42,351 bases of DNA from an uncultured bacterium (GCA_965370265.1 CBDUSL010000001.1:1-42351); one strand, 5' to 3'; counted from the first letter of the stretch, positions 12,490 through 41,848 are shown. Notes: generated by a model not told the origin, from the sequence alone. Numbers and translations: made by a program.

Positions 12490-13021
12490 GAAAATTATCT
12501 TTGATAATAAAATTTGTTTTTAATCTGTCACTTAAAAAATGCAATAACAAATAAATTATGGCTATGACGAATGAATTTAAAATAATTTGCCCTAATACAA
12601 ATAATAAATAATTCGTGTTTATGGTAATGGAATAGGCGGCCATATTAAAATTATAAAGTAAAACAGAAACAAAACTAATAATAAAATAAAAGAAAAACGT
12701 ACTAATTACACTAATGAGAAGAAAAGAATAAAATGAACGGTTGGTAATATATTTTTGAAAAAAGTAATAAATAAAAAGAATCATTAATAATAATGTAAAG
12801 GAATAAATGCCAAAGCTTAAAACAGAATAAAGATCAAGAAAAAATCCGCCAACTAGGGCAAATATAACCGTATTTTTAAGGGAGGAAAATAAAAAAATTA
12901 TAACGAGAGTAATCAATATGGGATTAATATATTGAAAAAAACTTCCCAAAAAATTAAAGATGTTTATTTGGATTAGGAAAGCCAGGATAATTAAAGATGA
13001 GATTAATATGTATTTTCTCAT
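12482..13021 (-). CDS. mreD: rod shape-determining protein MreD-like
   Basis: 179 aa polytopic membrane protein immediately after mreC. The call rests mainly on position and topology. Confidence 0.55.
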   Translation of the reverse strand: MRKYILISSLIILAFLIQINIFNFLGSFFQYINPILITLVIIFLFSSLKNTVIFALVGGFFLDLYSVLSFGIYSFTLLLMILFIYYFFQKYITNRSFYSFLLISVISTFFFYFIISFVSVLLYNFNMAAYSITINTNYLLFVLGQIILNSFVIAIIYLLLHFLSDRLKTNFIIKDNFHG

Positions 13022-13024
13022 TTT

Positions 13025-13834
13025 TTAAAAGCTGGTTATCACTGAAACAATCTGTATTTTTTCGTAATCAGACAAGGGATAAATATAAGCCGTCTGAAAA
13101 AATTCACCGGGTTGGACTTTGATTGATTCAATCCGACCGATCAGAAGGCCTTTGGGAATGGTATTTTCCAAACCGGAAGTAATAACAGTTTGGTCAATAT
13201 CAAATTTATCCTCTTTAAGAATCAATTCCATTTTCAAAGATAAACCAAATTCACCGGAAATAAGTCCCATAGTTACATCCTCATTTTGTATTTGGCTGGC
13301 GGTAGATGATCTTGTATCATTCAAAAGCATTACTTGTGATCGGTTGGATTCTACTTCGATTATTTTACCAATTAAAATCATTTCATCAGCCACAACCGGC
13401 ATGCCAACACTTATTCCTTGATCAGAACCCTGATTAATCATCATTGTTTTGAAAGTAGGATCAACCCCTTTGCTGATTACGCGGGAAAGAATATAGTTAT
13501 AATTCTTTTCCTGCAGTTTTTTTATCTGAGGATCAATAATTTTATTTTCTTCTATTAGCGTTTTAGTGGCGCTGTTTTCAATGGTTAATTGCTGAATCTG
13601 TTTTTTTAATTCTTCATTTTCATCCGATAGGTTATTAAAATCAGAAAATTTTCCAAAAAAGTTTTTAAACGTATTTGAACCACTTGATAAAGTGGTCTGT
13701 ATGGGTTTTAAAGCCCCGGTGATGACTTTTTCAATGGGACTTAGTATTTTGAAAGAATGCAAAAAAATAAGCAGAATCAGAACTGCTGCCACAACTATAA
13801 ATATATGTTTATTTTCGCGAAAAATATTCGGCAT
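13025..13834 (-). CDS. mreC: rod shape-determining protein MreC
   Basis: TM helix, then a coiled coil (ENEELKKQIQQL), then a beta domain (GMPVV....LIGKIIEV....SQVMLLND). Confidence 0.8.
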   Translation of the reverse strand: MPNIFRENKHIFIVVAAVLILLIFLHSFKILSPIEKVITGALKPIQTTLSSGSNTFKNFFGKFSDFNNLSDENEELKKQIQQLTIENSATKTLIEENKIIDPQIKKLQEKNYNYILSRVISKGVDPTFKTMMINQGSDQGISVGMPVVADEMILIGKIIEVESNRSQVMLLNDTRSSTASQIQNEDVTMGLISGEFGLSLKMELILKEDKFDIDQTVITSGLENTIPKGLLIGRIESIKVQPGEFFQTAYIYPLSDYEKIQIVSVITSF

Positions 13835-13837
13835 ATA

Positions 13838-14887
13838 CTAAATACTAAGTTCAGTTGGAGCGATTAGAACATCTTTTAGGGCATCGAGGTCTTCAAGAAT
13901 CAAACCTGTTCCCCGGACAACACAAGTTAAGGGATCATCTGTAACATGAACTGGAATGTGTGTTTCCATTTTAATTACCTTATCAAGATTTTTTAAAAGG
14001 GATCCCCCGCCGGTTAAAACGATGCCGCGACTATAAATATCTGAAACTAATTCCGGGGGAGTGTATTCGATAGTACTTTTTATATTATCAACTATGATTT
14101 TAAGAGATCGGCTAATTGCTTTTCTTATTTGGGACGAGGAAATAGCAACTTCTTTCGGTAAACCGGTTATTAAATCACGGCCTCGGATTTTTGTTTCTTT
14201 TTCTTCGCCCTCTTCCACATAAGCTGACCCTATTTTTTTCTTAGTTTCTTCGGCTGTTCTTTCGCCAAGGAGAAGATTAAATTCTTCGCGAGCATACTGA
14301 ATAATATTTTTATCCAATTCATTTCCGGCTATTTTTAATGATTTAGAGGAAACAATCCCTCCTAAAGAAATTACCGCAATTTCAGTGGTTCCGCCCCCTA
14401 TATCCACCACAATATTGCCTGAAGCGTCTTGAATGGGCAATCTGGCGCCAATAGCCGCGGCCATGGGTTCTTCAATTAAAAATACTTCTCTAGCTCCAGC
14501 ATGTAGGGTAGCATCTTCTACCGCTTTTCTTTCCACTTCAGTAATGCCGAGCGGAATAGCAATAACTATTCTTGGCCGGGGCATAAAGCCAAAATTTTCT
14601 TTATGGACCTTTTCGATAAAATGCTTAAGCATTTTTTCGGTAACTTCAAAATCAGAAATAACACCTCCGACCAAAGGCTTGACAGCTGTAATGTGGGAAG
14701 GGGTTTTTCCAACCATCTTTTTTGCTTCCTCGCCGATGGCTAATATTTGTTCAGTTCTGGTATTTACCGCCACTACAGAAGGTTCGTTAATTATTATCCC
14801 TTTGTCACGAACATAGACCAGTGTGTTGGCTGTTCCCAGATCAATACCCATATCTTTTGAAAATCTACCGAGAATATTCTTAAACAT
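13838..14887 (-). CDS. mreB: rod shape-determining actin homolog MreB (canonical copy in the mreBCD-mrdA block)
   Basis: Motifs GIDLGTANT, NEPSVVA, VVDIGGGTTEIAVISLGG and LTGGGSLLKNLD. Confidence 0.95.
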   Translation of the reverse strand: MFKNILGRFSKDMGIDLGTANTLVYVRDKGIIINEPSVVAVNTRTEQILAIGEEAKKMVGKTPSHITAVKPLVGGVISDFEVTEKMLKHFIEKVHKENFGFMPRPRIVIAIPLGITEVERKAVEDATLHAGAREVFLIEEPMAAAIGARLPIQDASGNIVVDIGGGTTEIAVISLGGIVSSKSLKIAGNELDKNIIQYAREEFNLLLGERTAEETKKKIGSAYVEEGEEKETKIRGRDLITGLPKEVAISSSQIRKAISRSLKIIVDNIKSTIEYTPPELVSDIYSRGIVLTGGGSLLKNLDKVIKMETHIPVHVTDDPLTCVVRGTGLILEDLDALKDVLIAPTELSI

Positions 14888-17792: not shown

Positions 17793-18830
17793 TTATGAAT
17801 TTTTATGAATTGTAATGTAAATCGTATTAGATTCTTGTTTGGGGATAAGAATCATATCGGTCACAAAGCCGGATGTTGGAAGAAGGATAGTTTTCCAATC
17901 TTCTCCAAAATTTGTGGAAATGTGAAATTTATTATCTTTAATTAAATAAATATTATTTGGTCTGGCCGGGTCAAGAACTACCTGGTCAATTTTGTTACCG
18001 AAACTAACTAAAGTAGTCACTTTTTTGAAATTATCGCCCTGATCAATGGTTTTTAGAAGGCCATAGTCGGTAGTAACATAAAATTCTGAAGGGTTATTGT
18101 GATTAAAACTTATAGAACTAATAATATTTGCCCCTTTGTATGATTTTAAATTTTCATGCAAGTCGATCCAAGTTTCACCCTTATCTATAGAGCGCATTAA
18201 GCCCTTTCCATAAACAAGATAAATTATTCGCGAATCAAGTGGATCTAAATAAATGTTCTTTATAGAAATATTTAGCCATTTTAATACCTGCCAGGTATTA
18301 CCGGAATTGGAGCTTTTCAATAAAGCGCCTTTGTTGGTAGTCGCATAAATTATAGATGGATCATAGTGATCGGCAACAATTTTAGTTATTTTTTGTTCGG
18401 GTTGGGTTTCGATATAAATAGTAGACCAATTTTTACCCGCATTTGTGGATTTTAATATTTTAGTATTACTGGCTGTGTAAAGTATATTTCTGTCTTTAGC
18501 ATCAAATACAACATTAACAAATGTTCCTTGTTTTAAGCCTGTTTCTTGCCAAATATCACCGCCATTTTCTGACTTATAAATTCCCCTATTAATCGTACAA
18601 ATATACAAAATATTCTGATCGTCTGGATTGGCAATAATATTTCTTACGGAAACATCTCCTATTTTCAACTCTTTTTTATTTGTCCGTCCGGCATAAACAT
18701 ATTGAGCCCAGGTTTCACCCGAGTCAACAGACTTAAAAATTCCCAAATCGTTGGATTTTTTGGCTGTAATGGAAAATGAGCACCCAGAAACAAAAACTAC
18801 TAAGAGCAAAAAAATAATGAGTTTTTTCAT
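17793..18830 (-). CDS. lipoprotein with seven Asp-box (BNR) repeats, predicted 7-bladed beta-propeller (Ycf48/sialidase-like fold)
   Basis: Lipobox signal MKKLIIFLLLVVFVSGC. Seven S/T-x-D/N-x-G-x-T/N-W/F repeats are present: SVDSGETW, SENGGDIW, STNAGKNW, SSNSGNTW, SIDKGETW, TIDQGDNF, STNFGEDW. Confidence 0.65.
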   Translation of the reverse strand: MKKLIIFLLLVVFVSGCSFSITAKKSNDLGIFKSVDSGETWAQYVYAGRTNKKELKIGDVSVRNIIANPDDQNILYICTINRGIYKSENGGDIWQETGLKQGTFVNVVFDAKDRNILYTASNTKILKSTNAGKNWSTIYIETQPEQKITKIVADHYDPSIIYATTNKGALLKSSNSGNTWQVLKWLNISIKNIYLDPLDSRIIYLVYGKGLMRSIDKGETWIDLHENLKSYKGANIISSISFNHNNPSEFYVTTDYGLLKTIDQGDNFKKVTTLVSFGNKIDQVVLDPARPNNIYLIKDNKFHISTNFGEDWKTILLPTSGFVTDMILIPKQESNTIYITIHKNS

Positions 18831-19908: not shown

Positions 19909-21099
19909 TCAAGACGGGGCAATTACTTTTAAAGTTTCATTTGCACATTTATCCCATGAAAAATTCTTTATTCTTTCAAGTCCTTTTTTCTTTAAATTAT
20001 CCCGAAAATCATTATCTTTAACCAATCTTTGCATATAATCAGCTATTTTATCATGTTTATCAGGATTAACTAATATTGCCGCCTGGCCGATAATTTCAGG
20101 CAAAGAACCTCTATTAGAGGCAATCACCGGTAAGCCACAGGCCATCGCTTCTATTGGAGGAATACCAAAACCTTCGTAATAAGAAATGAAAATGAGGGCT
20201 TCGGCGGCGTTAAATAGGTAAGGAATTTTTTCGGCCGGAACCCAGCCAAGTTTAATAATATCTTTTTCAATATTTTTTTCTTTAATAAAATCTCTCGCTT
20301 TATTCCAGCCGTCCCCTTCGGTGCCAATCAAAACCAATTTATGGCTTGATAAATATTTCTTTTTAAAAAGATAAAAAGTTTTTATTATACCCAATATATT
20401 TTTCTTGTTTTCTAAGCGACCAACAAAAACAAAAAAAGGCCTAGTAACTGAAAATTCTTTAAGGATACAGATAATTTTATTTTTATCTTTCATAATCTTA
20501 TAATTTTTGTTATAACCAAGATGAATAACTCTGGGTTTAGTTGTATTAAATTTATAATATTTTTTTATCTCGTCGGACGTAAATTTAGAAGGGGTAATAA
20601 TTATTTTTGCTTTTTTTACGGCTAAACGCATGCTAAAACGATGATAATCAAGTTCGTTGTTAGAATATTTCCCAAGGGTGCATATTTTTACCAAGAAAGC
20701 GATAATTATTGAAAAAAAGCTATTCCCTCCAATTTTTTTTTGGGTATAAAGCTCAGGAAATTCTTCAAATCCGATATCGTGACAAGTGGTAACTGTGTTT
20801 TTTGGGTGAATAATCGGAATAGTATGAGCGGGGACAAAAAGAACATCCGGTTTTTTAAACAGCATTTCCAGTGAAAGCCTTAACTGGCTCCATAAAAACT
20901 TTGGCGGCCATTTTAGAACTTTATTATAAAAATTATCCCCGAGATCTTTTAGATCATCCACTAAGGGTTCTTTGGTATACAAAATATATTTATTTTTTTT
21001 ATCAATTTCGGAAAATTTTCTAACTAAATGATACGAGTACCACTCGGTACCCGTCCTTTCCTTTTTATTGGCCCTGGATGCATCAATGCCAATTAACAT
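19909..21099 (-). CDS. glycosyltransferase family 4 (GT-B, GT1-type domain)
   Basis: C-terminal E-x7-E type segment [30 protein letters not shown]. Confidence 0.8.
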
Positions 21100-22107
21100 T
21101 TATTTGGCGGAGAGAATACTTCTCTTGTATGAATCCAGGTTATCCAGGGCAATACCGGTCCCTTTTACGACACAGAGTAGTGCGTCATCGGCGACATAAG
21201 TATTCACTCCTGTGGCCTGGGTAATAAGTTTGTCTATATTTTTAAGAAGTGAGGAGCCGCCCGAAAGAACCATCCCCTTGTCAATTACATCAGCGGAAAG
21301 TTCCGGCGGAGTATTCTGTAAAACAGATTTTATTGATTGAATAATGCTTGAGAGTTCATCTTGTATCGCTTCGGTGACATCGTCTGAAATAATATTAACA
21401 GTCTTGGGCAGTCCAGAAACCATATCTCTGCCCCTAATATCCATTGTTAATTTTTCTTCCAAAGGAAGCGCCGAACCAATTTTAATCTTTATTTCTTCAG
21501 ATGTTCTTTCACCAATAGCCAGTCCGTATTTTTTTCTAATATATTCAGCAATAGCCGTGTCAAATTTAGTGCCGCCTACGCGTACTGAATTATTAGAAAC
21601 GATTCCACCCAAAGAAATTACGGCCACTTCTGATGTGCCACCCCCAATATCCACAATCATATGTCCGGAAGCGGAGCCAATAGGAATATTAGCCCCAATA
21701 GCGGCCGCTACGGGCTCTTTTATGATATAAGCGGCCTTCGCCCCAGCCGCTAAAGTTGCGTCAATCACGGCCCTTCTTTCAGTTGAAGTAATACCGGCCG
21801 GAACAGCAATCATTACTTCAGGCCTAAATAGTCTTACCCCGCCCAAGGCTTTATTTACAAAATAACGGATCATTGCTTCTGTAGTTTTATAGTCGGCAAT
21901 TACCCCGTCACGTAATGGGGTGCGGGCAATAATTGAGTCGGGGGTTCTGCCAATCATTTCCTTTGCTTCCAGGCCGACGGCCAGTACTTTTTTATCTATC
22001 AATGAAATAGCAACAACCGAAGGTTCATTTATAACAATTCCCCTCCCCGGAATATGAACAAGGGTGTAAGTGGTTCCTAAATCTATACCAATTCTTTTGA
22101 AAAACAT
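21100..22107 (-). CDS. second MreB-family actin homolog (paralog embedded in the glycan cluster)
   Basis: Full set of MreB motifs: GIDLGTTYT, NEPSVVA, IVDIGGGTSEVAVISLGG, LSGGSSLLKNID. By eye roughly half the positions are identical to the 13838..14887 copy. Its start abuts the upstream stop (22107/22108) and its stop abuts the downstream start (21099/21100). Confidence 0.9.
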   Translation of the reverse strand: MFFKRIGIDLGTTYTLVHIPGRGIVINEPSVVAISLIDKKVLAVGLEAKEMIGRTPDSIIARTPLRDGVIADYKTTEAMIRYFVNKALGGVRLFRPEVMIAVPAGITSTERRAVIDATLAAGAKAAYIIKEPVAAAIGANIPIGSASGHMIVDIGGGTSEVAVISLGGIVSNNSVRVGGTKFDTAIAEYIRKKYGLAIGERTSEEIKIKIGSALPLEEKLTMDIRGRDMVSGLPKTVNIISDDVTEAIQDELSSIIQSIKSVLQNTPPELSADVIDKGMVLSGGSSLLKNIDKLITQATGVNTYVADDALLCVVKGTGIALDNLDSYKRSILSAK

Positions 22108-24039
22108 TTATTTAAAATTAATATCTATTATTAAATCTTCCGAAAGTTTTGTATTTAAAGTTATATTATTATCACTCTCTTTTATCAATTTGTCAATAGG
22201 GGTGAAGTCCTTGATTTTTTTATGAAAATCCAAATTGATATTAGTTTGATATGGAGCAGTGCCAGCCTGTTTCTGAATAACCAATTGATAATTTTTTTCG
22301 TTTATCATCTTATAAATTGATTCAGGGAGTTCGTATTTAAAAATTATCGTTTTGTGTTCTTGAGGTTCGATACTGACAAAAGAACCAAAATATGTTTTTC
22401 CAAGTTCATTTACAGAAACTTTTTCTTCATTTGTGCCGATAATATCAATTAGTTTGCTGCCTTGAGGAACATAAAGACGAAAATATGTCCGGTAACGGGT
22501 TGTTTTCCAGGTAAAGGTTCCTTCGTTATTATATATAACCTCCAAGTTGGCGATATATTTATTATTTTCTTTTTTAATTGAATAACTTAATGTTCTTTTA
22601 ACGCCGGGGTCTGTTTTGAGACTGGCTAAATTTGCGTCGATAAGTGTAAAATAATCACCCGCGTTCTGGTGGATATGCCCCCCCCAATTATTTTCTTTAA
22701 TCAAATTTTCAGAAACCTGGTCTTTCAAATAAATCAAAATATGTTTTTCTTTAAGGTCTTCACTTAGTATCTTAAAAAAATCATCCCATTTTTCCTGAGG
22801 CAATGAAAATATTTTATCCATCAGAATTTTTGATAAGTCACCGATTATCTCCTTGCGTTCGCTTTCCTCAAGCCCAGCCTGATAAAAACCTTTTTCAACC
22901 TGATACTGAAGGGTATCAACAAAATTGTCGCTTGTAAATTCTATCCCGTAAACTTTTATGCTACCGGTTAATCCAATTAATGATTCTATAAGGGTCGGAG
23001 TAATAGCAATTACGCCATCAAAGTTTCTCTCTCTTCCCCCCTCCTGCTCATAAAACCAAAGGGCTTTTTCGGCTGAAACAGGAAAATCCGGGGACCAGTT
23101 TGAATCACGAAGAAACCACTTTTCAACTTTATTATATTTGGCAAGCGGGGCTGGAGGAGTAATATTTAAATAATCGGCCTGTTCATCCAAATTATAAACG
23201 TTATCTGTTTTAAAATTGATTATTTCTGCGTCTTTAACGTTTATAATTCCATATGTGCCTATAAATCCCCCGGTTGGCCTCATCTCCGAGTTATTTTGAA
23301 GAAGGAAAAAATATTTGCTGCTTTCAGGATAACCGGCAATATGAGGAAGAACGCGGGCTAAAACAGTAATTTGGCTAATCCCCTCTCTTGCTTTTGGCAG
23401 ATAATCTTTGAGTAAATCGACCACTTCCTTGATCGGGCCGATCAGGCCAGTTTTAGGCAAATCCTTAATATTTTCGGCCGAGTTATTAATTGATTCTTGT
23501 GATTCCTTAAGTAGCTGGTCGGAAGAATCAATTTTAGCCAGGATTTCTCTTTTTTGAGCGGAAGAAATAGAAGCAAAACTCAATTCGGATTCTTCTTTAA
23601 AAGGAGCCATAACTTCTACCGCCAAACCGACTAATCCATCAATCGTATCGGTTAATTCGGCTCCAGTCTCAAGAATAACATTAATCGCTTTATATTGTTT
23701 TGAGACAAAAGGTATTACTTGTAAATAACTTATTTTATTAAGCGATTGACTCGAATTATTAAATGAATTATGGCTTTCCTGGATTAATTTTTGGGCTTCA
23801 GAGTAATCCTGAAGCTTAATATATTCTTCGGCCTCGAAGAGTTTATTTTTAGCGGCAATAGCCTCATTATAGGCTTTTTTAGCCTTAGGATAAGCTAAGG
23901 TGGTAATTAAACCGGTTAAGGCCATAAATAAAACTACGAAGATCGTTATATATTTTACAAATTTTTTGTTTTTCTTCCTTATTTTATATGTTTTTATGCC
24001 ATCTAAAAAATTAGCGGCTTTTTGTTTTCCGTTAAACAT
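22108..24039 (-). CDS. large single-pass extracytoplasmic protein, DUF4012-like
   Basis: 643 aa with an N-terminal TM helix (ITIFVVLFMALTGLITTLA), a helical or coiled region and a large ectodomain. The segment NNSEMRPTGGFIGTYG resembles the DUF4012 core as recalled from memory, not from a search. Confidence 0.5.
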   Translation of the reverse strand: MFNGKQKAANFLDGIKTYKIRKKNKKFVKYITIFVVLFMALTGLITTLAYPKAKKAYNEAIAAKNKLFEAEEYIKLQDYSEAQKLIQESHNSFNNSSQSLNKISYLQVIPFVSKQYKAINVILETGAELTDTIDGLVGLAVEVMAPFKEESELSFASISSAQKREILAKIDSSDQLLKESQESINNSAENIKDLPKTGLIGPIKEVVDLLKDYLPKAREGISQITVLARVLPHIAGYPESSKYFFLLQNNSEMRPTGGFIGTYGIINVKDAEIINFKTDNVYNLDEQADYLNITPPAPLAKYNKVEKWFLRDSNWSPDFPVSAEKALWFYEQEGGRERNFDGVIAITPTLIESLIGLTGSIKVYGIEFTSDNFVDTLQYQVEKGFYQAGLEESERKEIIGDLSKILMDKIFSLPQEKWDDFFKILSEDLKEKHILIYLKDQVSENLIKENNWGGHIHQNAGDYFTLIDANLASLKTDPGVKRTLSYSIKKENNKYIANLEVIYNNEGTFTWKTTRYRTYFRLYVPQGSKLIDIIGTNEEKVSVNELGKTYFGSFVSIEPQEHKTIIFKYELPESIYKMINEKNYQLVIQKQAGTAPYQTNINLDFHKKIKDFTPIDKLIKESDNNITLNTKLSEDLIIDINFK

Positions 24040-24854
24040 TATTTTTTCAAATCCTTTGCTCCTAAATATTTAGCGAAATACTTAATAGCACTGGAAATAT
24101 GAATCCGAGTTGCTTTACTAAAAATACCTTTCAGCCCCGGGCTTTCGGCGGACATTCTTTGGTGATAATGAACGATATCAACGTCACTTAAATAGCAAAC
24201 ACGGTATCCTGCCTGCCAGAATTGCCGGCACCAATCGACATCCTCGAAATAAAGAGTGAAGCGCTCGTCCATAAGTCCAACCTTATCTATTGCTTCCTGG
24301 CGAACGAGCATACAGGCCCCTAAAATCCAATCAACATCATTTATTTTTTCGAAATGATCATCAAGCATTAGATATTTTCTCAGATCTTTTTTAACCCAGG
24401 GTAAGCGTCCTAATGGTGTCCGCCTATACATGGGAGTCATAAATTTGGGAAAACGGTAACAAGAAATCTGCCTTGTTCCGTCAGGATTAATCAATTTGGG
24501 AGCGACTATGCCGACATCAGGGTGATCATCCATAAAAGAGATGAGTTTTTCAATCACACCTTCAAAAATAGTTATATCAGGATTAAGAATCATGACATAT
24601 CGCCCGCTTGATTCTTTGACTCCAAGATTATTACCGGCCGCGCAGCCTCTGTTTACTTTACTTTCTATGAATCGGATATGCGGAAAACTTTCTTTCATCA
24701 TCTTTGCACTGGAATCCTGTGAGTGATTATCAACCACTATAATTTCATAATTTTTCTTTAGCTTAAGCAGTTCGATTCCTTTAATACACTGCCTTAAAAG
24801 ACCTTTAGTTTTGTAATTTAATATTACTACGGATAATTCCATCATGACAGCCAT
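24039..24854 (-). CDS. glycosyltransferase family 2
   Basis: SVVILNYK..IIVVDNHSQD, a DxD-like NPD, and the rhamnosyltransferase-like segment FLYFEDVDWC. Confidence 0.85.
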   Translation of the reverse strand: MAVMMELSVVILNYKTKGLLRQCIKGIELLKLKKNYEIIVVDNHSQDSSAKMMKESFPHIRFIESKVNRGCAAGNNLGVKESSGRYVMILNPDITIFEGVIEKLISFMDDHPDVGIVAPKLINPDGTRQISCYRFPKFMTPMYRRTPLGRLPWVKKDLRKYLMLDDHFEKINDVDWILGACMLVRQEAIDKVGLMDERFTLYFEDVDWCRQFWQAGYRVCYLSDVDIVHYHQRMSAESPGLKGIFSKATRIHISSAIKYFAKYLGAKDLKK

Positions 24855-25855
24855 TTTCTAAAATTATTAGCACTTTTTTTATCCTTTAATATCATTTTTC
24901 TTTTCTTAATCATTTTTGGCAAAAGTTTAAAAAAGTTCAGATATGATTTTAAGGAAGAAAATTCAAAAAGAAGTATGTAAAAAAATCTTTTAAGTTCCCT
25001 CCATGTAATAAATAAAAAATCTTTAAAATAATTTTTCAAAAAATCATTCTTTACCATCAAGAAAAAATGATTTCGGGTTGAATAATAATTTATCATATTA
25101 GATTTTTTTCTGCGGTTCTTTCTTATGGATTTAATATTTTTTACCTCAGTCTGGTCGGCTTGCCTATGGTGATAGGCAAAGGCTTCCGGAATAAATACTG
25201 ATTTTAAGCCATTTATATTCATTCTCCAGGCAAGATCTATATCTTCTTTATAAACAAAAAAATCTTCATCAAAATATTCGTTATTAATATTCAATAATTC
25301 TACATCTTTTTTTCTTAGAAACAGCAAACCTCCGGAGATACCAAAAACATCTTTTTTCTCTTTGAATTGACCGGTATCTTTTTCATTTTCTCCCAAATTT
25401 ATAAAGTTGCGATTTCGGTCGACTTTTATACCCACAGAGTCAATAATATCAGTAAATACAATTTCCTTCAACTCATCAATTTTAAAATGAAATTTGTAAA
25501 TTTTGCCGGTAAAAGCGCTATAAACCTTCATTTTTTCCGCATTTTTGTAAAGTTCAAAGAGATAGTTTTTGGTTAAAATAACATCCGGATTCATAATTAA
25601 AATATAATCGCTTTTGGACAATTTAAGCCCTTGGTTATGAGCCCTTGAATAACCCAGGTTATGGATATTGCGCAGAATTTTTACTTCCGGATAATTTTTT
25701 TCGATATAATCAACCGTTCCGTCATTAGAGCCATTATCAATAACAAGGACTTGAAAATCCTTAAATGACTGGTCAAAAATTGATTTTAGGCAATCCGGCA
25801 GATAAGTAATACTATTCCAGGTAACTATATTAATTGATACTTTTTTTGACTTCAT
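24842..25855 (-). CDS. glycosyltransferase family 2
   Basis: SINIVTWNS..VLVIDNGSNDGT, NPDV, and the FFVYKEDIDLAWR segment. Confidence 0.8.
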   Translation of the reverse strand: MKSKKVSINIVTWNSITYLPDCLKSIFDQSFKDFQVLVIDNGSNDGTVDYIEKNYPEVKILRNIHNLGYSRAHNQGLKLSKSDYILIMNPDVILTKNYLFELYKNAEKMKVYSAFTGKIYKFHFKIDELKEIVFTDIIDSVGIKVDRNRNFINLGENEKDTGQFKEKKDVFGISGGLLFLRKKDVELLNINNEYFDEDFFVYKEDIDLAWRMNINGLKSVFIPEAFAYHHRQADQTEVKNIKSIRKNRRKKSNMINYYSTRNHFFLMVKNDFLKNYFKDFLFITWRELKRFFYILLFEFSSLKSYLNFFKLLPKMIKKRKMILKDKKSANNFRKWLS

Positions 25856-27464
25856 TTGCTTCCGTTAAAAATAAGTAGAAAATTGGGGCAATTATCAGGA
25901 GATAACCGAGTCCCAAAGGGTGATTTAAAAAAGGGGTTGTAAGATGAGTTACAAGCAGGAAAATCAATCCGGCTATTAAAGATTTTGTAAATATATATTG
26001 GTTTATATTTTCTTTAATTTTCTTTAAAACTTTATGGCCATTCCTATAAATAAAATAAATAAAATATAGGTAAAATATTAAACCAAAAAAACCGATTTTT
26101 ACGATGATATCAAGATAAGCCCATTCATAAAGATAAACTTTTATATATTCCACCAATTCCGTCCCTGGGATTAATGATTTAAAAGTTACTAATGTGCCAA
26201 AACCGCTCCCCTGAAGAGGGTTTTCTTTTATTTTTTCCAAAATCGGGTTCATAAGGCTAACTCTGTTTGAAGCCGCCAACTCAGAGGACGGATTTAGCAA
26301 ACTGGTTATTCTTGAGGATAATAAATCCAGACTGGCTGGAGAGACAAGATATAACAAACCAATGGAAATACCTAAAAATAATAAACAGACTATTAATGCT
26401 TGAAATATTTTTCTTTTGGGCAAAGAAAATATTATATAAAGAAAACTGATTATAAAACCAAGCCAAAAACTTCTGGAATAGGATATCAGCAGCACTAATC
26501 CAAAAATAAAAATAAAAAAGAAATTTAAAATTTTACGGTTTAACTTAATCTTTTTAAAAGCGGAATAAGTAATTAATAAAATAAGGTAAATTACGACGTA
26601 AAACTGGCTGGGAGAAAATATTCTAAAAAATCGCCCGCCAATATATGATACTTCCGCTAAACCAAGATCCTTCAGCCAACGGTAAACAGCCGGTTTATCT
26701 TCGGTTATCTCAGTTGCATCAAGGGATAATTTTTCCTCGGCTAACTTGGTCGTTTGGGCTAGTCTCGCATTTTCCGGCAAAGTAGCCAAATTTTTTAATT
26801 CTTCAAGCTGTTTTGATTCTACTTTGGTCGCTGATATAAGTTCATCGGAATATTCAAAAACGCCAAAGTCCAAAAGCAGAATAAAGGTAAATAATGAGAG
26901 AGAAATAACACCAATGGTTAGTACCTTGATAAACTTTATAATATTTTCTTTTTTAAAAAATACGTCAAAGAAAGGGAATATCAAGGCTAAATAAAAATAA
27001 GCGTTAATGTCATAAAAAACAATTTGGTTTGAATTTTTAATCAGTCCATTGATAAAGCCAAACAACAGGAAAATACAAAAAATAGCGAATGGAAGCCAAA
27101 GATTTGAACGAAAGAATTTTATCTCCTTTTTCCTGATAATTCCATAAAGGTAGACAAACATTATAATAAGAAAAATAGCCAGTCGGAGAGAAACAACGTA
27201 GTTAAAAACAGGAAATGAAAAAAGATATCCTTTGCTGCCAATAATGAGTTCAAGAACAGCTATTAAAACCCCATATTCTAATTTTTTGAAAGTCAAAAAA
27301 AGAACGGCTCCTATAATAAGCCAAAAACAAATATAATTTAAACTCGAATTTAAAAAACCGAGGTAAGACAGCAAAAATACTGACATAGTCAGCAGAGAGT
27401 AAAGATATGTTTTTTTATCTTTTAGAAAAATAAGCTCCATAGATTTGAGCTTATAATATAACAC
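25830..27464 (-). CDS. O-antigen ligase/polymerase-like (Wzy_C-type) polytopic membrane protein
   Basis: 544 aa with at least 10 predicted TM helices, a roughly 70-aa soluble insert and a SYSRSFWLG-type loop. Its position is between glycosyltransferase genes. Confidence 0.6.
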   Translation of the reverse strand: MLYYKLKSMELIFLKDKKTYLYSLLTMSVFLLSYLGFLNSSLNYICFWLIIGAVLFLTFKKLEYGVLIAVLELIIGSKGYLFSFPVFNYVVSLRLAIFLIIMFVYLYGIIRKKEIKFFRSNLWLPFAIFCIFLLFGFINGLIKNSNQIVFYDINAYFYLALIFPFFDVFFKKENIIKFIKVLTIGVISLSLFTFILLLDFGVFEYSDELISATKVESKQLEELKNLATLPENARLAQTTKLAEEKLSLDATEITEDKPAVYRWLKDLGLAEVSYIGGRFFRIFSPSQFYVVIYLILLITYSAFKKIKLNRKILNFFFIFIFGLVLLISYSRSFWLGFIISFLYIIFSLPKRKIFQALIVCLLFLGISIGLLYLVSPASLDLLSSRITSLLNPSSELAASNRVSLMNPILEKIKENPLQGSGFGTLVTFKSLIPGTELVEYIKVYLYEWAYLDIIVKIGFFGLIFYLYFIYFIYRNGHKVLKKIKENINQYIFTKSLIAGLIFLLVTHLTTPFLNHPLGLGYLLIIAPIFYLFLTEANEVKKSIN

Positions 27465-27494: not shown

Positions 27495-28373
27495 TTACTT
27501 TTCTTTTTTTAGAAAACCAAAAAATTTACTTAAAGCGACCAAGGAGGCCAATAAATAACTTAAGGGAAAAAGAGCCAAAATTATGTAATAAGACCAAGAT
27601 GATTGGTTCTTTTTAAAATAATAAGCCAAACTTTTGTTAAAATTCATTTGGGCTTTTAGAGCCATTAATTGTTTGAAGCTTTCCCCTTTTTGATGGATGA
27701 TTTTAGCTTTATGAAAAAACATTACTTTATATCCGATTTGTTTGACTCTTTTGCAAAAATCAACTTCTTCAAACCAGACAAAAAAATTAGGATCAAAAAA
27801 ACCGACTTTTTCGATAACTTCACGTTTGGTCATTAAAAAAGCGCCCATTACCTGGTCAACTTCTCTGGTTTCCTGATAATTAAAATCTTTCATTAAATAT
27901 TTTCTGATCGGTTTTAAAGAAGGATAAAAATTGTGTATTTTTAAAAGAATTAAGGCTTGAGAAAGCAAGTCCGGCAATCGGCGGCAAGATGATTGAACAG
28001 ACAAATCCGGATTAAGAATTTTACAGCCTAAAACGCCGACCGGCAAATTATTTTTTAGATATAAAAGACAATTTTGGATTGTCTCTTTAAACAATACCGT
28101 GTCTGGGTTAAGAACTAAAAGCCACTTACCTTTAGCCCGGGAAAGACCTTGGTTATTGGCGGCTGCAAATCCTACATTTTTTTGATTGGCTATTAATAAA
28201 TACTCCGGGAAATCATTTTTTACCATTTCCTGGGAATTGTCAGATGAATTATTGTCTACAATTATTACCTCATGACTAACCAAGGCAAATTTCTTAATTG
28301 ACAAAAGACAACGCCTTAAATGATCAGCGACATTCCAAGAGACAATAATAATTGATAATTCAGGCTCATTCAT
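27495..28373 (-). CDS. glycosyltransferase family 2
   Basis: LSIIIVSWN..VIIVDNNSSDNS, NPDT and FFVWFEEVDFCKR, plus a C-terminal TM helix. Confidence 0.85.
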   Translation of the reverse strand: MNEPELSIIIVSWNVADHLRRCLLSIKKFALVSHEVIIVDNNSSDNSQEMVKNDFPEYLLIANQKNVGFAAANNQGLSRAKGKWLLVLNPDTVLFKETIQNCLLYLKNNLPVGVLGCKILNPDLSVQSSCRRLPDLLSQALILLKIHNFYPSLKPIRKYLMKDFNYQETREVDQVMGAFLMTKREVIEKVGFFDPNFFVWFEEVDFCKRVKQIGYKVMFFHKAKIIHQKGESFKQLMALKAQMNFNKSLAYYFKKNQSSWSYYIILALFPLSYLLASLVALSKFFGFLKKEK

Positions 28374-30195
28374 GGTTTAAATTGTATTTATTAAACAGTA
28401 TTTTTTTTGCTTCTTCTTTCGGGACACTTTTAGAAATACCTCCTTTTCTCATCGGGCCGTAAAACAAAACATCTTGAATGGCCAGTCCCTTTCCCCCGTT
28501 TTTAGCGACGTGAAGCCATAAGTCCCAATCCTGAAGTCTGGCCAAATTTTCATCGAAGCCTGGAAATTTATCGGTTCGCAACATACTCATAGTACTGATA
28601 TAATTGAGTTTTTTTAATTTTCGATGGGAAAAAGGCAGAGCCCTGAATTTTTTCCGCCCGAATAAAAAAGCGGAGTAACAAAAATCATACTCGGGGTTCA
28701 TTTCAAGAACTCTGATCATTTTTTCAAAACACGTTGGATAAAGAATAATATCGGCGTCACAAAAAAATAAATATTTCCCCTTTGCTTCTTTTGCCCCTAA
28801 ATTTCTGACCCAGGAAGCCTGATTAGGAATTTCCCCTTCATGTTTTCTTTCAATTATCTTTATATCCTTATATTTGCCCCTTATCTTATCGCTTAAATAA
28901 GAATCCGGACCGTCATTGACCACTATTATTTCAAAATCTTTAAATGTTTGCCTGTAGATATTTTCAAGGCACTTATCGATATATTTATTTACTTTATAGG
29001 CGGGAATAATAATACTAAGGGCCGGTCCGGTTTTATCTTTTTTAATAATTTTTGGCTGATCAATAATATTGGTAAGCTTATGGACCTGCTTATCCCAGTT
29101 AAAAGTGCCGGTTACCCAGCGTTTCCCCTTTTCTCCCATTTCATTTTTTAAATTATCATTAGTTAACAATTTTAGGACGGTATCGGAGATATCTTTAGTA
29201 TTCTCCGGATTAACAGCCAGGCCTGTTTCGTCTTCGATAATAGTCTCCCCTGTTCCTCCGGCCTTTCCAATAATTACCGGAGTCCCCTGCGCCTGGGCTT
29301 CCAAATAAACCAAGCCAAAGCTTTCAATATCTTTTTGCCCCTTCATTTCACGGGTAGGCATAATAAATAGATCTGCCAAATGATAATAAGGGAATTTTAG
29401 AATATCCTTATCTTCAATTGGTCCGGCAAATATGACCTGTTTTTCAACTTGCAATTCTTTAGCTAAATTTACCAAATAATCCTTATCGGGTCCATCGCCG
29501 ACAATTAAATATTTTAAATTTGGCACTTTTTTAAGAATTTCGGGCAATGAACGGATAACGAAATCCTGCCCCTTTCGTTTAACCAGCCTTCCTATAGTCA
29601 GTATTACTTTTTGTCCTTCAAGTCCGTATTTTTTTCTTAACTCATTTTCCCGATTGGGAATATTTTCTGCTTTAATATTTAAGGAAGGGTATATAATAAT
29701 AATCTGAGATTCAAATAAGCCAAGTTCCATAATTTTCTTTTTCATAAAATGCGTATTGGCAATTACATAATCGGCGTTTTTAAGATTTAAAATCATTAAT
29801 TTTTTACTAAACCAGCCTTTTTGGGGGATAAGCGTATCAACTCCGTGGGTATAAACAAGATATGGAAGGCCAAATAATTTTTTTAGCATTAAGCCAACCG
29901 TCACTGCGTTAAAATAATGGCCAAACTGTAAATATTCTATATCATTATCTTTAACCAATTTGCGCACTTTCCAGATAAGAGGCAGCCATGAGGGTTTAAA
30001 AAAGCGCCAAGAAAAAAACGGCTGGCGGATTACTATTCTTTCATAATTTTTATCAAAATCTTCCGACCCTTTTGTTTTGTCGACCAGAATAATTATTTTA
30101 TCTTCCGGAAGCTTAAGACACAAATTTTTGAGATAATTTTCAATGCCCCCTATTTTAGGCGGAAAAAAGTATGATATAAGTAGTGATTTTTTCAT
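28366..30195 (-). CDS. bifunctional fusion: N-terminal GT4 (GT-B) plus C-terminal GT2 (GT-A) glycosyltransferase
   Basis: Residues about 1-385 carry the GT4 motif ESFGLVYLEAQAQGTPVI. Residues about 400-609 carry the GT2 motifs LSIIIPAYK..IIVVNDGPD..FCDADI. Confidence 0.8.
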   Translation of the reverse strand: MKKSLLISYFFPPKIGGIENYLKNLCLKLPEDKIIILVDKTKGSEDFDKNYERIVIRQPFFSWRFFKPSWLPLIWKVRKLVKDNDIEYLQFGHYFNAVTVGLMLKKLFGLPYLVYTHGVDTLIPQKGWFSKKLMILNLKNADYVIANTHFMKKKIMELGLFESQIIIIYPSLNIKAENIPNRENELRKKYGLEGQKVILTIGRLVKRKGQDFVIRSLPEILKKVPNLKYLIVGDGPDKDYLVNLAKELQVEKQVIFAGPIEDKDILKFPYYHLADLFIMPTREMKGQKDIESFGLVYLEAQAQGTPVIIGKAGGTGETIIEDETGLAVNPENTKDISDTVLKLLTNDNLKNEMGEKGKRWVTGTFNWDKQVHKLTNIIDQPKIIKKDKTGPALSIIIPAYKVNKYIDKCLENIYRQTFKDFEIIVVNDGPDSYLSDKIRGKYKDIKIIERKHEGEIPNQASWVRNLGAKEAKGKYLFFCDADIILYPTCFEKMIRVLEMNPEYDFCYSAFLFGRKKFRALPFSHRKLKKLNYISTMSMLRTDKFPGFDENLARLQDWDLWLHVAKNGGKGLAIQDVLFYGPMRKGGISKSVPKEEAKKILFNKYNLNHE

Positions 30196-30196
30196 T

Positions 30197-31654
30197 TTAA
30201 CGATTTTTTAAAGATTTTAGCAGGGAAATTATTTCTTGTCTCGTAATCACCCTAATAACTAAAATCATAATTACGTAAATAATTACTCCAATTGGAATTA
30301 AAATAAGGAAGTTTATAAAATCTTTCAACCAAAATATAGTGCCGGACATTACCAAAGAGGCCATTAAGCTTCTTAAAAACCAGGAAATTATAACCTTTTT
30401 TTGGTATATCAAATATTTTGAAGTTTGATAATAACCAAGGATAAAAAGAAATATAGCGGAAGATAAGGCGGCAATTGAGGCCCCGATATGGTTAAATTTT
30501 GGGATGAGAATGAGATTTACAACAATATTAAAAACAACGGTCAGGCCCAGATTAATTGTATTGGTTTTTTGCCGGTTACTGGCGTTAAGGGAAGAACTGA
30601 GAATAAAGTTAACAAAAATAAATACTAAGCCCAAAATAGATATTCTAAAGGCAGGGATGGAGTTCGCGAAATCATCAGTAAATAAAACAGTTATTTTATC
30701 GGCCAAGACAAACGCCCCTAAAGAAATCGGGAGGGCAATAACCATTAAATAGCGAAAAGCGTTCTGGATAGTTTGGGTGAGAAGTTCTTTAGATTCAATA
30801 TAAAAACGGGATAAGGCCGGATAAATACTGTTATTGAAAGCGAGGGGGATAAACTGGATAGCGTAAGTTAATTTATAAGCGACCGAATACCAACCGACAT
30901 ATTGATCACCGTTTGAAGACCTTTTTAAAAACGAAAGGAGCAGAATATCGATGTAAGCGTAAATTTTAATAAAGATGCCAGCCAAAAAGAAGGGCATAGA
31001 AAGTTTTAAAAGGTGCCTGATAACCCCAAAATCAAGCTTATAGGCCGGTCTGGCTTCTGTTTTTCTAAGGATGCTTACCAGAGCGTAGATAAAATTGCCT
31101 AAAGCTCCAAGCAGGACGGCCACTCCCAAAACAATCGGATTATGGGTAAATTGTAAGGCGGTCACCCCGGCTCCAACCACTAAAAATTGGTAAATAATGG
31201 TGCCGATAGCCTCATATTTTAGATTTTGGTAACCTCTAAATATGGCGAATAGACTCAAGCTAAAAGACTCAAAAATCATAACCAGAGCCACCAAATAAAC
31301 CAGGTTTCTTGTTTCAGGAGGGTATCTTAATAAATTAATCGAAACAAAAATGAGCAAAAGAGAAATTAAGGCAAAATAAAACTTGACCGTAAAAACGGCC
31401 GAGAGATATTTTTTCGCCTTCTCTTTGGTTCTGGCTACTTCACGAATTAGAACCGGATTAAGGCCCAGATCGACTAAGATGCCAAAAATAGTAACAAAAG
31501 AAACAGCAAAAACAAATTTGCCGGTATTAATATAACCGATATATCGCGCATAATAAATAAAGTAACCAAATGAGATTACTTTCTGAACGGTATAGGCAAT
31601 TGTTAATAATAAGGTATTACGGGAAACTTTATTTGATCTGATATTTTCAGACAA
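30197..31654 (-). CDS. wzx: Wzx-type polysaccharide flippase (MOP superfamily)
   Basis: 485 aa with about 12-14 TM helices and a polysaccharide-biosynthesis-protein-like N-terminus. It heads a glycosyltransferase cluster. Confidence 0.7.
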   Translation of the reverse strand: MSENIRSNKVSRNTLLLTIAYTVQKVISFGYFIYYARYIGYINTGKFVFAVSFVTIFGILVDLGLNPVLIREVARTKEKAKKYLSAVFTVKFYFALISLLLIFVSINLLRYPPETRNLVYLVALVMIFESFSLSLFAIFRGYQNLKYEAIGTIIYQFLVVGAGVTALQFTHNPIVLGVAVLLGALGNFIYALVSILRKTEARPAYKLDFGVIRHLLKLSMPFFLAGIFIKIYAYIDILLLSFLKRSSNGDQYVGWYSVAYKLTYAIQFIPLAFNNSIYPALSRFYIESKELLTQTIQNAFRYLMVIALPISLGAFVLADKITVLFTDDFANSIPAFRISILGLVFIFVNFILSSSLNASNRQKTNTINLGLTVVFNIVVNLILIPKFNHIGASIAALSSAIFLFILGYYQTSKYLIYQKKVIISWFLRSLMASLVMSGTIFWLKDFINFLILIPIGVIIYVIMILVIRVITRQEIISLLKSLKNR

Positions 31655-31676: not shown

Positions 31677-32171
31677 TTATCTTTTCTGCCACTGAGGAGC
31701 GCGCCTGGCTCCTTTTAAGCCAAATTTTTTTCGTTCTTTTACTCTCGGGTCTCTTCGAAGAAGACCTTCAGCTTTAAGAACTTTCCGGTTTTTAGAGTCC
31801 AGTAATTCTAAAACTCTGGCTAGTCCCAGTTTAACCGCATCAGCTTGACCTCTTTTGCCTCCGCCTTTAACACGGATACTTATTTTTCCATAATCTTTTA
31901 TGCCTAGAACAGCAAGTGGTTTATAAACATTAATTTGAAATTCCAGGGTTGGAAAATATTTTTTATATTCTTTATCGTTTACTATAAATTCTTTTTCACC
32001 TTTTTTATACAATCTCACTCTGGCGACGGAGCATTTTCTTCTGCCAACCGCAAAAAGATAGGTCCGACGAATCACTTTTTTCTTTTCTTCTTGGGGAATT
32101 GTTTCAACCCTCTTAACCGTTTTTTTGGCCTTTTTTTGCGACTTAACCGTTTTTTTGGCTTTGGTTGGCAT
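31677..32171 (-). CDS. rpsI: 30S ribosomal protein S9 with about 33-aa lysine-rich N-terminal extension
   Basis: GRRKCSVARVRL, GGGKRGQADAV and RRDPRVKERKKFGLKGARRAPQWQKR. Confidence 0.9.
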   Translation of the reverse strand: MPTKAKKTVKSQKKAKKTVKRVETIPQEEKKKVIRRTYLFAVGRRKCSVARVRLYKKGEKEFIVNDKEYKKYFPTLEFQINVYKPLAVLGIKDYGKISIRVKGGGKRGQADAVKLGLARVLELLDSKNRKVLKAEGLLRRDPRVKERKKFGLKGARRAPQWQKR

Positions 32172-41155: not shown

Positions 41156-41848
41156 TTAAAAAAATGAATAAACAGTTAAAGCGATCCCGCCGATAATTCC
41201 CAGATATCCCAAAACTTTTAAAACAGCCGCCGACTGGCCAACCGATTTTTCTACCTGTTCTTCAGTTTTATAGCTGATAATAAAATCCCCCTCCCCTTTC
41301 TGGATAGCCATATCCTCACTGGTTTTAACCGCCTGACCGTAAACATATACCTGCAGACCTAAAGACAAGGCTGATTCTTCGGCTCGGTAATTATCGTTGG
41401 CCACAAAGTTAAATATCTTACCCATGATTGAATCATCCGGGGATTCACCCCGCCCGATAAACTTTTCGCCAAGAGAACGTGCTTCAATTTTTGCCTTGTC
41501 GGGCAGAATTTTTACCTTTCCGGTTTCATCTTCCACAAAAAAGGGAATACTTTCTTCATCAGATTTTACCCTTTCCCAATTATGAGTAATTCTCCCCTCT
41601 TTATCTCTTTCCTCCACTTCCTTTTCCAGTTCATACTCATAGTAAACGCAGTCTTGCTTGGAAAAAGGAGTTTGAAGGGGGTTGTCCGCGGTTATTTTCC
41701 CCTGAACCTCAACCTGGTTTCCTTCAATTATTTCTTTAACCGGCCCACTTTTAGTTTTGGCCATTTCACTTTTTTTCTCTTTTTTCTTCCCGCTTAAATA
41801 AACAAAAAGCGCTCCGACGAGCAATGTTATAACTCCTGTCCAGATCAT
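41156..41848 (-). CDS. GIDE-like (PF12483-type) protein bracketed by N- and C-terminal TM helices
   Basis: 230 aa with a TM-soluble domain-TM architecture. The segment NPLQTPFSKQDCVYYEYE resembles the bacterial GIDE-family core as recalled from memory, not from a search. Confidence 0.45.
   Translation of the reverse strand: MIWTGVITLLVGALFVYLSGKKKEKKSEMAKTKSGPVKEIIEGNQVEVQGKITADNPLQTPFSKQDCVYYEYELEKEVEERDKEGRITHNWERVKSDEESIPFFVEDETGKVKILPDKAKIEARSLGEKFIGRGESPDDSIMGKIFNFVANDNYRAEESALSLGLQVYVYGQAVKTSEDMAIQKGEGDFIISYKTEEQVEKSVGQSAAVLKVLGYLGIIGGIALTVYSFF

Follow-up and report, generated by a model that had tools for sequence, protein, structure and literature searches.

An ancient, strongly constrained second MreB isoform of Patescibacteria is encoded beside glycan-assembly genes

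The window is a 42,351-nt stretch of DNA from an uncultured, ultra-small bacterium of the Patescibacteria (GCA_965370265.1, CBDUSL010000001.1:1-42351) that contains two complete genes for the bacterial actin homolog MreB. All coordinates are positions in this whole stretch, and genes on the minus strand run from high to low positions. The list of open reading frames (ORFs) and the Pfam matches agree with the first-pass annotation that one MreB gene lies in an mreB-mreC-mreD-PBP2 block and the other in a Wzx/Wzy-type cluster. The first, MreB1 (13838-14887, minus strand; PF06723, 480.2 bits), is followed by the elongasome genes MreC (13025-13834), MreD (12482-13021) and a PBP2-type transpeptidase (10582-12489), all on the minus strand; this block (10582-13834) served as the comparator. 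The second, MreB2 (21100-22107, minus strand, 335 aa), lies between the gene for a 643-aa DUF4012 protein (22108-24039, minus strand) and that for a 396-aa GT4 glycosyltransferase directly downstream (19909-21099, minus strand; PF00534, 127.9 bits). Upstream of the DUF4012 gene are two GT2 glycosyltransferase genes, GT2a (24039-24854) and GT2b (24842-25855), both on the minus strand and both matching PF00535. In the Patescibacteria, MreB2 represents an ancient second isoform, separate from the mreCD/PBP2-linked MreB1 and more strongly constrained, and it is persistently associated with glycan-assembly genes.

MreB2 matches the MreB profiles over its full length and exceeds each curated cut-off, with 440.6 bits against PF06723 (MreB_Mbl; cut-off 27), 441.2 bits against TIGR00904 (cut-off 365.75) and 455.7 bits against NF010539 (cut-off 293). 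MreB1 scores 475.5 bits against TIGR00904 and 504.7 bits against NF010539. Both proteins fall below the 515-bit cut-off of the MreBH profile NF010540 (MreB2, 365 bits; MreB1, 415.2 bits). The nucleotide-site residues D9, T12, E131-P132, D153-IGGGT158 and G283-G284 are all present in MreB2, as had been claimed for the ATPase motifs of the paralog. Alignment and translation place the motifs from K130-E131-P132 through D153-IGGGT158 at 21634-21720 (minus strand). D9, T12, G155-T158 and G283-G284 are present in 141/141 MreB2 sequences, and the catalytic E131 is present in 137 of the 141. The residue before the catalytic Glu is K130 in 141/141 MreB2 sequences and Glu or Asp in other MreBs. A clade signature of 37 positions, each conserved to at least 90% in MreB2 and rarely seen in MreB1 or the references, includes K130 (in I-K-E-P), S108-T109, G144-S145, H149 and Y327-x-R329-S330. 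By approximate T. maritima subdomain boundaries, about 22 of the 37 would fall in the membrane-proximal subdomain IA, and this is given little weight.

Residues 89-96 of MreB2 (GGVRLFRP; 21820-21843, minus strand) form a predicted membrane-insertion loop in the alignment to T. maritima MreB, where the hydrophobic loop GG[VI]R[LF]F aligns with L93/F94. Position 93 is L, F or I in 137 of the 141 MreB2 sequences and position 94 is F in 122. The MreB2 N-terminus is short and hydrophobic (M-F-[IVF]-K-K), and the window protein starts with MFF. In T. maritima and Geobacillus, MreB attaches to membranes by such a loop together with a hydrophobic N-terminus (PMC10718530). In the alignment MreB2 contains this direct membrane-binding element, and we infer its function from that study. 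MreB1 carries an N-terminal extension of 8-9 residues (MFKNILGRF), of the kind that is an amphipathic helix in E. coli and Caulobacter MreB (PMC10718530). As judged from these elements, the membrane anchors of the two paralogs appear to differ, with an N-terminal extension in MreB1 and a hydrophobic loop plus N-terminus in MreB2. The anchor of Geobacillus MreB is of the same type as that of MreB2.

The two paralogs are 50-52% identical. Each is more similar to Geobacillus MreB (MreB2, 56.1% identity and 381 bits in phmmer; MreB1, 55.5% and 394 bits), and because they share less identity with each other than with this protein, MreB2 is an old, separate paralog. From related loci, 140 MreB2 and 13 MreB1 orthologs were collected. 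Identity to the window protein of the same clade ranges over 68-90% for the MreB2 orthologs (median 76%, n = 140) and 55-75% for the MreB1 orthologs (median 64%, n = 13), and the median identity across the two clades is 45%. By tblastn, RRF is 32-58% and DUF4012 27-60% identical across loci; MreB2 is the best conserved among the genes compared across loci in this region. A neighbor-joining tree on corrected identities, without bootstrap, was built from 25 MreB2, 14 MreB1, 3 PDB MreBs and 110 full-length representatives of 50% clusters. In this tree, MreB2 is monophyletic and MreB1 falls in another clade, so the separate clade raised in the first-pass annotation is present and MreB2 is not a recent duplicate.

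Passages of a preprint describe a split of the MreBs of the Candidate Phyla Radiation (CPR) into two clades, with some species having both, and propose different roles for them (Takahashi et al., bioRxiv 10.1101/2020.05.13.095042). MreB1 and MreB2 behave likewise in the neighbor-joining tree; the likeness to the clades in those passages is one of pattern. The same passages offer no genomic context and contain no mention of a link between one CPR MreB type and DUF4012, glycosyltransferase, Wzx or Wzy genes. In our literature search, no paper was found that ties MreB to DUF4012 or to this glycan cluster. The two CPR MreB clades are already published, and the glycan-cluster context of MreB2 appears to be unreported.

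The G+C content of MreB2 (0.43) is the highest among the 30 tabulated window genes (whole window, 0.349), as the first-pass annotation had suspected. The excess is confined to codon positions 1 and 2. At third positions the G+C content (GC3) is 0.36, compared with 0.24-0.38 in the other genes, and there is no signal of foreign origin. This codon-position analysis points to a Gly/Ala-rich, highly constrained protein. G+C content was dropped as a sign of horizontal transfer, since GC3 lies within the range of the neighbors.

MreB1 has lost nucleotide-site residues in 4-5 of the 14 two-paralog loci (L085, L092, L118, L151 and partly L086; L-numbers are locus labels of the related contigs compared). 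In MreB2 numbering, these losses are E131 to N/Q/R, D153 to N/E and T158 to L/I/K, and the MreB2 of the same locus keeps all of these residues. Unlike these orthologs, the window MreB1 is intact. The substitutions are consistent with an MreB1 that in some lineages may be ATPase-impaired and dependent on MreB2. The search for MreB2 representatives also returned proteins with unusual MreB fusions, which seem to belong to other organisms. In P0121 (1010 aa), an N-terminal region with protein-kinase-like motifs (HRDxxxxN and DFG, recognized by eye) precedes two MreB domains in tandem, and P0122 and P0123 carry partial MreB duplications.

Approximately 120 informative related loci were compared in all, and in most of them MreB2 lies between DUF4012 and glycosyltransferase genes. 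The DUF4012-alignment scan used one genome per species and the best 80 of 588 matches, which are biased to relatives of this organism; these 80 loci are Patescibacteria labeled Kerfeld-, Falkow-, Uhr-, Komeili- or Parcubacteria. For the reverse scan, metagenome contigs were searched with MreB2. In one close relative, DUF4012 is 60% and MreB2 90% identical, and the entire array from rpsI to MreB1 is kept. DUF4012 is directly followed by a same-strand MreB2 ortholog in 63 of the 78 informative loci, and this adjacency persists across loci in which DUF4012 is merely 31-46% identical. The MreB2-linked DUF4012 proteins are mutually 34% identical at the median (minimum 26%), and the gap between the DUF4012 stop and the MreB2 start has a median of 18 nt (96 pairs). 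The 13 DUF4012 loci without MreB2 correspond to five clades of the DUF4012 tree.

When MreB2 is the anchor, the gene directly upstream is DUF4012 in 31 of the 50 informative loci. GT4 is directly downstream of MreB2 in 41 of 57 DUF4012-anchored loci and in 36/55 (or 35/54) MreB2-anchored loci. GT2a precedes DUF4012 in 48 of 54 loci, and GT2b precedes GT2a in 47 of 55. Among loci with both flanks, a glycan-assembly gene (glycosyltransferase, Wzx, Wzy or DUF4012) adjoins MreB2 in 37 of 40; beside MreB1, such a neighbor is found in 0 of 12. The linkage to mreC, mreD and PBP2-RodA, which is typical and not obligatory for MreB genes, is absent from MreB2, which is flanked by DUF4012 and GT4 in the window and never directly adjoins mreC, mreD or PBP2 among the loci examined.

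The association of MreB2 with glycan genes survives rearrangement and is seen in at least seven distinct arrangements. These include the canonical order, GT2a followed by MreB2, MreD and sugar-nucleotide genes followed by MreB2-GT4, inverted glycosyltransferase genes (L097), MreB2-GT2c (L141) and GT2a-MreB2-Wzy (L134). Four deeper loci (L162, L163, L164 and L165) encode MreB2-like proteins that are 45-58% identical. Two of them add further arrangements: in L165 the order is MreB-GT4-x-GT4-GT4, with a 4-nt gap between MreB and the first GT4 and with two further GT4 genes, and in L163 the MreB2-like gene is next to a WecG/TagA-type glycosyltransferase and MurB. In L001, L084 and L127, which are close or moderately diverged relatives, the whole array from ribosomal protein S9 to MreC (to PBP2 in L084 and L127) is kept, in the order Wzx, glycosyltransferase genes, DUF4012, MreB2, GT4, holB, BNR, RRF, RseP, ProRS and MreB1. 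The remaining loci mostly keep portions of this array.

DUF4012 is not upstream of MreB2 in 19 of the 50 MreB2-anchored loci, and two patterns are seen among these. In one, GT2a abuts MreB2 (L117, L148, L154). In the other, seen in one lineage (the L121 group), the MreB2-GT4 pair comes after MreD, a pfkB-family kinase, sugar-nucleotide genes, a HIT-family gene and a response regulator. At L121 6024-9280 (similarly in L103, L110, L122 and L125), this pair follows MreB1-MreC-MreD, and the genes between MreD and MreB2 encode the pfkB kinase, a dTDP-sugar isomerase-like protein, the HIT protein, an NDP-sugar dehydratase and the response regulator. GT4 is then followed by a subtilase with FG-GAP repeats in loci of this type. 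DUF4012 is undetected in all four deeper loci. Two proteins considered there as hidden DUF4012 candidates, of 729 aa (L165) and 551 aa (L164), were rejected with an hhalign probability of <1% each. The first-pass annotation had treated the DUF4012 protein as the partner of MreB2; it is not an obligate one, and glycosyltransferases are the more widespread neighbors.

The DUF4012 protein matches PF13196 with 103 bits (cut-off 28) over residues 241-380 and profile positions 4-142 of 144, so that the profile search bears out both families originally proposed. This domain (22900-23319, minus strand) contains an invariant NNxExRPTGGFIGxYG motif in the ortholog alignment. The protein has 2750 homologs; those named are Patescibacteria, and 120 of 120 homologs among the matches listed carry PF13196. 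The predicted topology is N-in and single-pass with an ectodomain of ~590 aa. Whether a cytoplasmic segment is available to contact MreB had been a concern of the first-pass annotation, and a tail of ~30 aa is predicted. Hydropathy and positive-inside reasoning assign residues 1-30 to this basic tail (MFNGKQKAANFLDGIKTYKIRKKNKKFVKY; 23950-24039, minus strand). The transmembrane (TM) helix at residues 31-49 (23893-23949, minus strand) is supported by the Kyte-Doolittle maximum of 2.37 and by a helix in the AlphaFold2 (AF2) model.

The AF2 model (pLDDT 82) contains a helical bundle (residues 14-234), an alpha/beta domain (241-470), inside which the Pfam domain sits, and a beta-sandwich (480-642). 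The RPTGGFIG loop (residues 255-261, ~23257-23277) has a pLDDT of <50 and is the least confident internal part of the model, which would fit a flexible glycine-rich active-site loop. Polar residues that are invariant in 22 DUF4012 orthologs include N249, N250, E252, D285, R311, E333, K396, D462, D468, N470, K475, D477, R482, K512, R515 and R521, in addition to the RPTGGFIG loop. The number of these residues suggests that the ectodomain harbors an enzymatic or ligand-binding site. Foldseek of the model against the PDB returned local beta-sandwich matches alone (TM-score <0.2), and a profile search against the PDB returned designed helical proteins only. Pfam at E = 10 gave nothing beyond DUF4012 and no domain match in the tail, including none to a RodZ-like folded cytoplasmic helix-turn-helix domain. 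No Pfam, NCBIfam, fold or profile match places the protein in the LytR-CpsA-Psr (LCP) family.

In 83 DUF4012 orthologs from Patescibacteria, the tails have a median length of 30 aa and a net charge of +5. The motif N[FL][LIVMFA] occurs in 40 of the 83 tails, compared with a mean of 7.9 and a maximum of 16 in 500 shuffles, and is positioned ~24 residues ahead of the TM helix. The window protein contains it as N10-F11-L12 (24004-24012, minus strand), in the recurrent form NF[LI]. The N-termini of the Rhodococcus and Eubacterium DUF4012 proteins lack it. The motif is also present in DUF4012 genes without an adjacent MreB2 (L017, L028, L029, L031), and there is no clear correlation with adjacency. 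It is at most a candidate cytoplasmic contact site.

Enrichment of the DUF4012 family in the CPR and in Gram-positive bacteria has been noted (PMC6744442). A DUF4012 gene adjoins a sugar transferase in a Rhodococcus plasmid polysaccharide locus in which no MreB gene is listed nearby, and another is found on a Lachnospira eligens ([Eubacterium] eligens) plasmid, also without MreB nearby. In the B. longum exopolysaccharide cluster, DUF4012 adjoins a priming glycosyltransferase and wzz, and no MreB gene is listed nearby (PMC5412050). The Rhodococcus and B. longum proteins share the Pfam family, an N-terminal membrane anchor and a glycan-cluster setting with the window protein. They differ from it in that MreB is not nearby and in that identity is only 20-24%.

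Upstream of GT2b, the glycan cluster of the window contains four more genes, all on the minus strand. These encode a Wzy_C-family membrane protein (25830-27464; PF04932, 44.6 bits, cut-off 31.7), the GT2c glycosyltransferase (27495-28373; PF00535, 82.4 bits), a two-domain GT4+GT2 glycosyltransferase (28366-30195; PF00534, 142.8 bits; PF00535, 84.4 bits) and a Wzx-type flippase (30197-31654; PF01943 (Polysacc_synt), 115.1 bits; NF041871 (Wzx_EPS), 100 bits, under the cut-off). The NCBIfam matches of the window glycosyltransferases are all far under their cut-offs. A Wzx-family flippase and a Wzy-family membrane protein are both present, as in a Wzx/Wzy-dependent pathway. The Wzy_C protein is a predicted polymerase, ligase or O-oligosaccharyltransferase; the family spans polymerases, ligases and protein O-oligosaccharyltransferases, between which the profile cannot distinguish.

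The junctions around MreB2 are as the first-pass annotation described them. TAAATG at each end of MreB2 gives 0-nt gaps, and TAATG at 24041-24037 makes the GT2a and DUF4012 genes overlap by 1 nt. The median gap across the 35 co-directional junctions of the window is 3 nt, and 21 of the 35 are 3 nt or less. The ProRS gene overlaps the MreB1 gene by 8 nt, and a scan for reinitiation-type coupling found a Shine-Dalgarno-like motif missing from most window genes. Because the median gap is so short, zero-nt packing is the norm of this genome and no special mark of the DUF4012-MreB2 pair. Stoichiometric co-production, which had been drawn from the apparent translational coupling, does not follow.

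The reading that we favor, tentatively and at a little short of an even chance, is that MreB2 is an ancient, membrane-bound MreB isoform that would act alongside the MreB1 elongasome as a scaffold for the glycosyltransferases working at the cytoplasmic face in an envelope-glycan pathway. MreB2 would most likely form ATP-dependent polymers at the inner membrane face, attached through its hydrophobic loop and short hydrophobic N-terminus. The filament would be a scaffold or positioning device for GT4, encoded downstream, and for GT2a and GT2b, encoded upstream. A wall-associated glycopolymer or protein-linked glycan would be synthesized and deposited in step with growth of the cell wall. The DUF4012 protein would be a separate extracytoplasmic component of glycan assembly, in this lineage perhaps tied to the MreB2 filament by its short basic tail. 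That MreB2 is kept beside glycosyltransferases after several different reshufflings argues for function. A more elaborate version has two parallel actin-guided envelope machines, with MreB1-MreCD-PBP2 for peptidoglycan and with MreB2 organizing the Wzx/Wzy glycan line, GT4 and GT2 on the filament and the DUF4012 ecto-enzyme tethered by the NF-motif tail. We regard this version as unlikely; if true, it would be the first cytoskeleton specialized for surface-glycan assembly.

Several observations weigh against a dedicated role of MreB2 in glycan assembly. All of the evidence is genomic, and it is from comparative genomics that we infer polymerization, glycosyltransferase scaffolding and any DUF4012 contact. 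Tight gene junctions are usual throughout this genome. Neither an initiating phosphoglycosyltransferase (WbaP/WecA) nor a chain-length regulator (polysaccharide co-polymerase, PCP) is found among the window ORFs of at least 100 aa scanned by Pfam; both may be located elsewhere in the genome. Two of the deeper loci have no adjacent glycosyltransferase, with the order MurA-MreB-holB-RRF-RseP-MreB in L162 and a Mur ligase/Ddl context in L164. The conservation of MreB2 and the catalytic losses of MreB1 fit equally well with MreB2 as the main housekeeping filament. Unrelated neighbors are also more stable than the MreB2 pairs: holB precedes BNR in 25/25 and 25/27 loci, BNR precedes RRF in 19/19 and 21/21, and ProRS is adjacent to MreB1 in 9/9, so that these pairs are adjacent in 93-100% of loci. 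In the same tally, the figures are 57/72 (79%) for DUF4012 followed by MreB2, 30/51 (59%) in the reverse scan, and 41/57 and 35/54 (65-72%) for MreB2 followed by GT4. The DUF4012-MreB2 adjacency to which the first-pass annotation drew attention is conserved, and it is weak evidence taken alone, because conserved adjacency does not prove function in genomes where unrelated neighbors are even more stable. The holB-BNR-RRF trio itself lacks an obvious functional link despite its stable adjacency.

The main rival to the scaffold reading is that MreB2 is a general second, possibly the principal, cell-wall-elongation isoform, comparable to Mbl and MreBH in Bacillus or to the partner isoforms in Spiroplasma, and that its position among glycan genes is inherited order with no dedicated glycan role. 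This is a real contender, to which we give roughly one chance in three. The S9-to-MreC array in L001, L084 and L127, the more stable adjacency of unrelated neighbors and the median intergenic gap of 3 nt are all in keeping with it, as is the MreB2-like gene of L162, which precedes holB-RRF-RseP-MreB with neither a glycosyltransferase nor DUF4012. Multiple MreB isoforms are usual in monoderms (PMC10718530), and the loss of MreB1 residues in 4-5 of 14 loci where MreB2 is intact suggests that MreB2 may be the active core filament. Inherited order accounts less well for the position of MreB2 beside glycan genes after rearrangement (37/40 loci in at least seven arrangements, against 0/12 for MreB1) and for its complete absence from the immediate neighborhood of mreC, mreD and PBP2 in the loci examined.

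A narrower proposal is a stoichiometric, translationally coupled MreB2-DUF4012 complex in which the tail would be a RodZ-like adaptor that links the filament to an extracellular assembly step; this is the weaker version, and we consider it improbable. It would explain an adjacency that holds in 63/78 loci down to 26% DUF4012 identity, with a median gap of 18 nt, and that is broken in only ~5 clades, and it would give a use to the N-in, basic ~30-aa tail with its NF[LI] motif, absent from the Rhodococcus and Eubacterium proteins. However, DUF4012 is missing upstream in 19/50 MreB2 loci and undetected in the four deeper ones, the motif is also found where no MreB2 adjoins, and the zero-nt junctions are not particular to the pair. 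In length the tail falls well short of the RodZ cytoplasmic domain, and it contains no recognized domain, and the DUF4012 genes in the Rhodococcus plasmid and B. longum glycan clusters have no MreB nearby. Finally, MreB2 could be a recent MreB1 duplicate or a horizontally acquired gene, an idea with which its G+C content of 0.43 would agree. The tests contradict this idea, and we consider it extremely improbable: MreB2 is just 50-52% identical to MreB1, it forms a separate clade with orthologs in 140 loci, its GC3 is inside the range of its neighbors, and full synteny is kept in relatives whose DUF4012 is only 30-45% identical.

The scaffold reading has a precedent in the Firmicutes. As in the organism studied here, several MreBs (MreB, Mbl, MreBH) are present in these monoderms, and Gram-positive bacteria usually hold several isoforms (PMC10718530). 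MreB is tied to wall-glycopolymer assembly there through LCP wall-teichoic-acid ligases, which first came to light in B. subtilis as proteins that interact with MreB (PMC7831098). These partners make it too strong a premise that MreB is unconnected with glycopolymers. MreB2 is not an ortholog of MreBH, as its profile score indicates, and the MreB2 clade is CPR-specific. The Bacillus MreB isoform genes are not known to be embedded in glycosyltransferase clusters.

Two other systems resemble parts of the locus. RodZ, like the DUF4012 protein, is an N-in single-pass membrane protein encoded beside or near MreB, and an analogy is conceivable. In RodZ, the part that binds MreB is a folded helix-turn-helix domain on the cytoplasmic side; the DUF4012 protein differs in its ~30-aa tail without a domain match and its large ectodomain without a structural match. 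In the PCP-ATPase pairs of Wzx/Wzy capsule systems (CpsC/CpsD, Wzc), a membrane protein with a large helical ectodomain is likewise found beside a cytoplasmic ATPase in a Wzx/Wzy cluster. This analogy is architectural alone. Those systems have a P-loop BY-kinase and two TM helices, compared with an actin-fold MreB2 and a DUF4012 protein with one TM helix. In B. longum, DUF4012 coexists with a Wzz protein.

MreB is the textbook organizer of peptidoglycan elongation, and the roles of extra isoforms are poorly understood even in Bacillus. Across much of the sampled Patescibacteria, MreB2 is better conserved than the canonical MreB1 and has kept glycosyltransferase genes as neighbors despite many rearrangements. 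The second CPR MreB clade thereby gains a concrete role that can be tested, and DUF4012 a first handle on its function. Should the link prove real, a bacterial actin can be dedicated to surface-glycan assembly, and the link would point to an envelope feature of importance for these bacteria, most of which are uncultured and many attached to hosts. Should it reflect frozen synteny only, it is a warning that adjacency and overlapping stop and start codons are weak indicators of function in compact CPR genomes.

All genes within 802-35215 are on the minus strand in the ORF list. This region is a run of 35 consecutive same-strand genes with a median gap of 3 nt, in the order ribosomal proteins and rpoA, glycan cluster, mre genes, aminoacyl-tRNA synthetase genes, Ddl and Alr, and constitutes a very large frozen 'superoperon'. 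The rpsI gene (31677-32171, minus strand) lies upstream of the Wzx-type flippase gene. Downstream of GT4 are, in order, holB, a gene for a predicted BNR/sortilin-Vps10-like lipoprotein (17793-18830, minus strand), RRF, RseP, a class II aminoacyl-tRNA synthetase (ProRS) and MreB1. A 337-aa ORF at 3398-4411, between a CitMHS-type transporter gene and ddl, has no Pfam match at E<=0.001. The NifU-like ORF at 1726-2217 has a TTG start and overlaps the upstream transporter gene (2124-3401) by 94 nt; its real start is probably further downstream. An ORF at 41156-41848 encodes a 230-aa protein with a match of 80.7 bits to the GIDE domain (PF12483), whose family takes its name from a eukaryotic E3 ligase.

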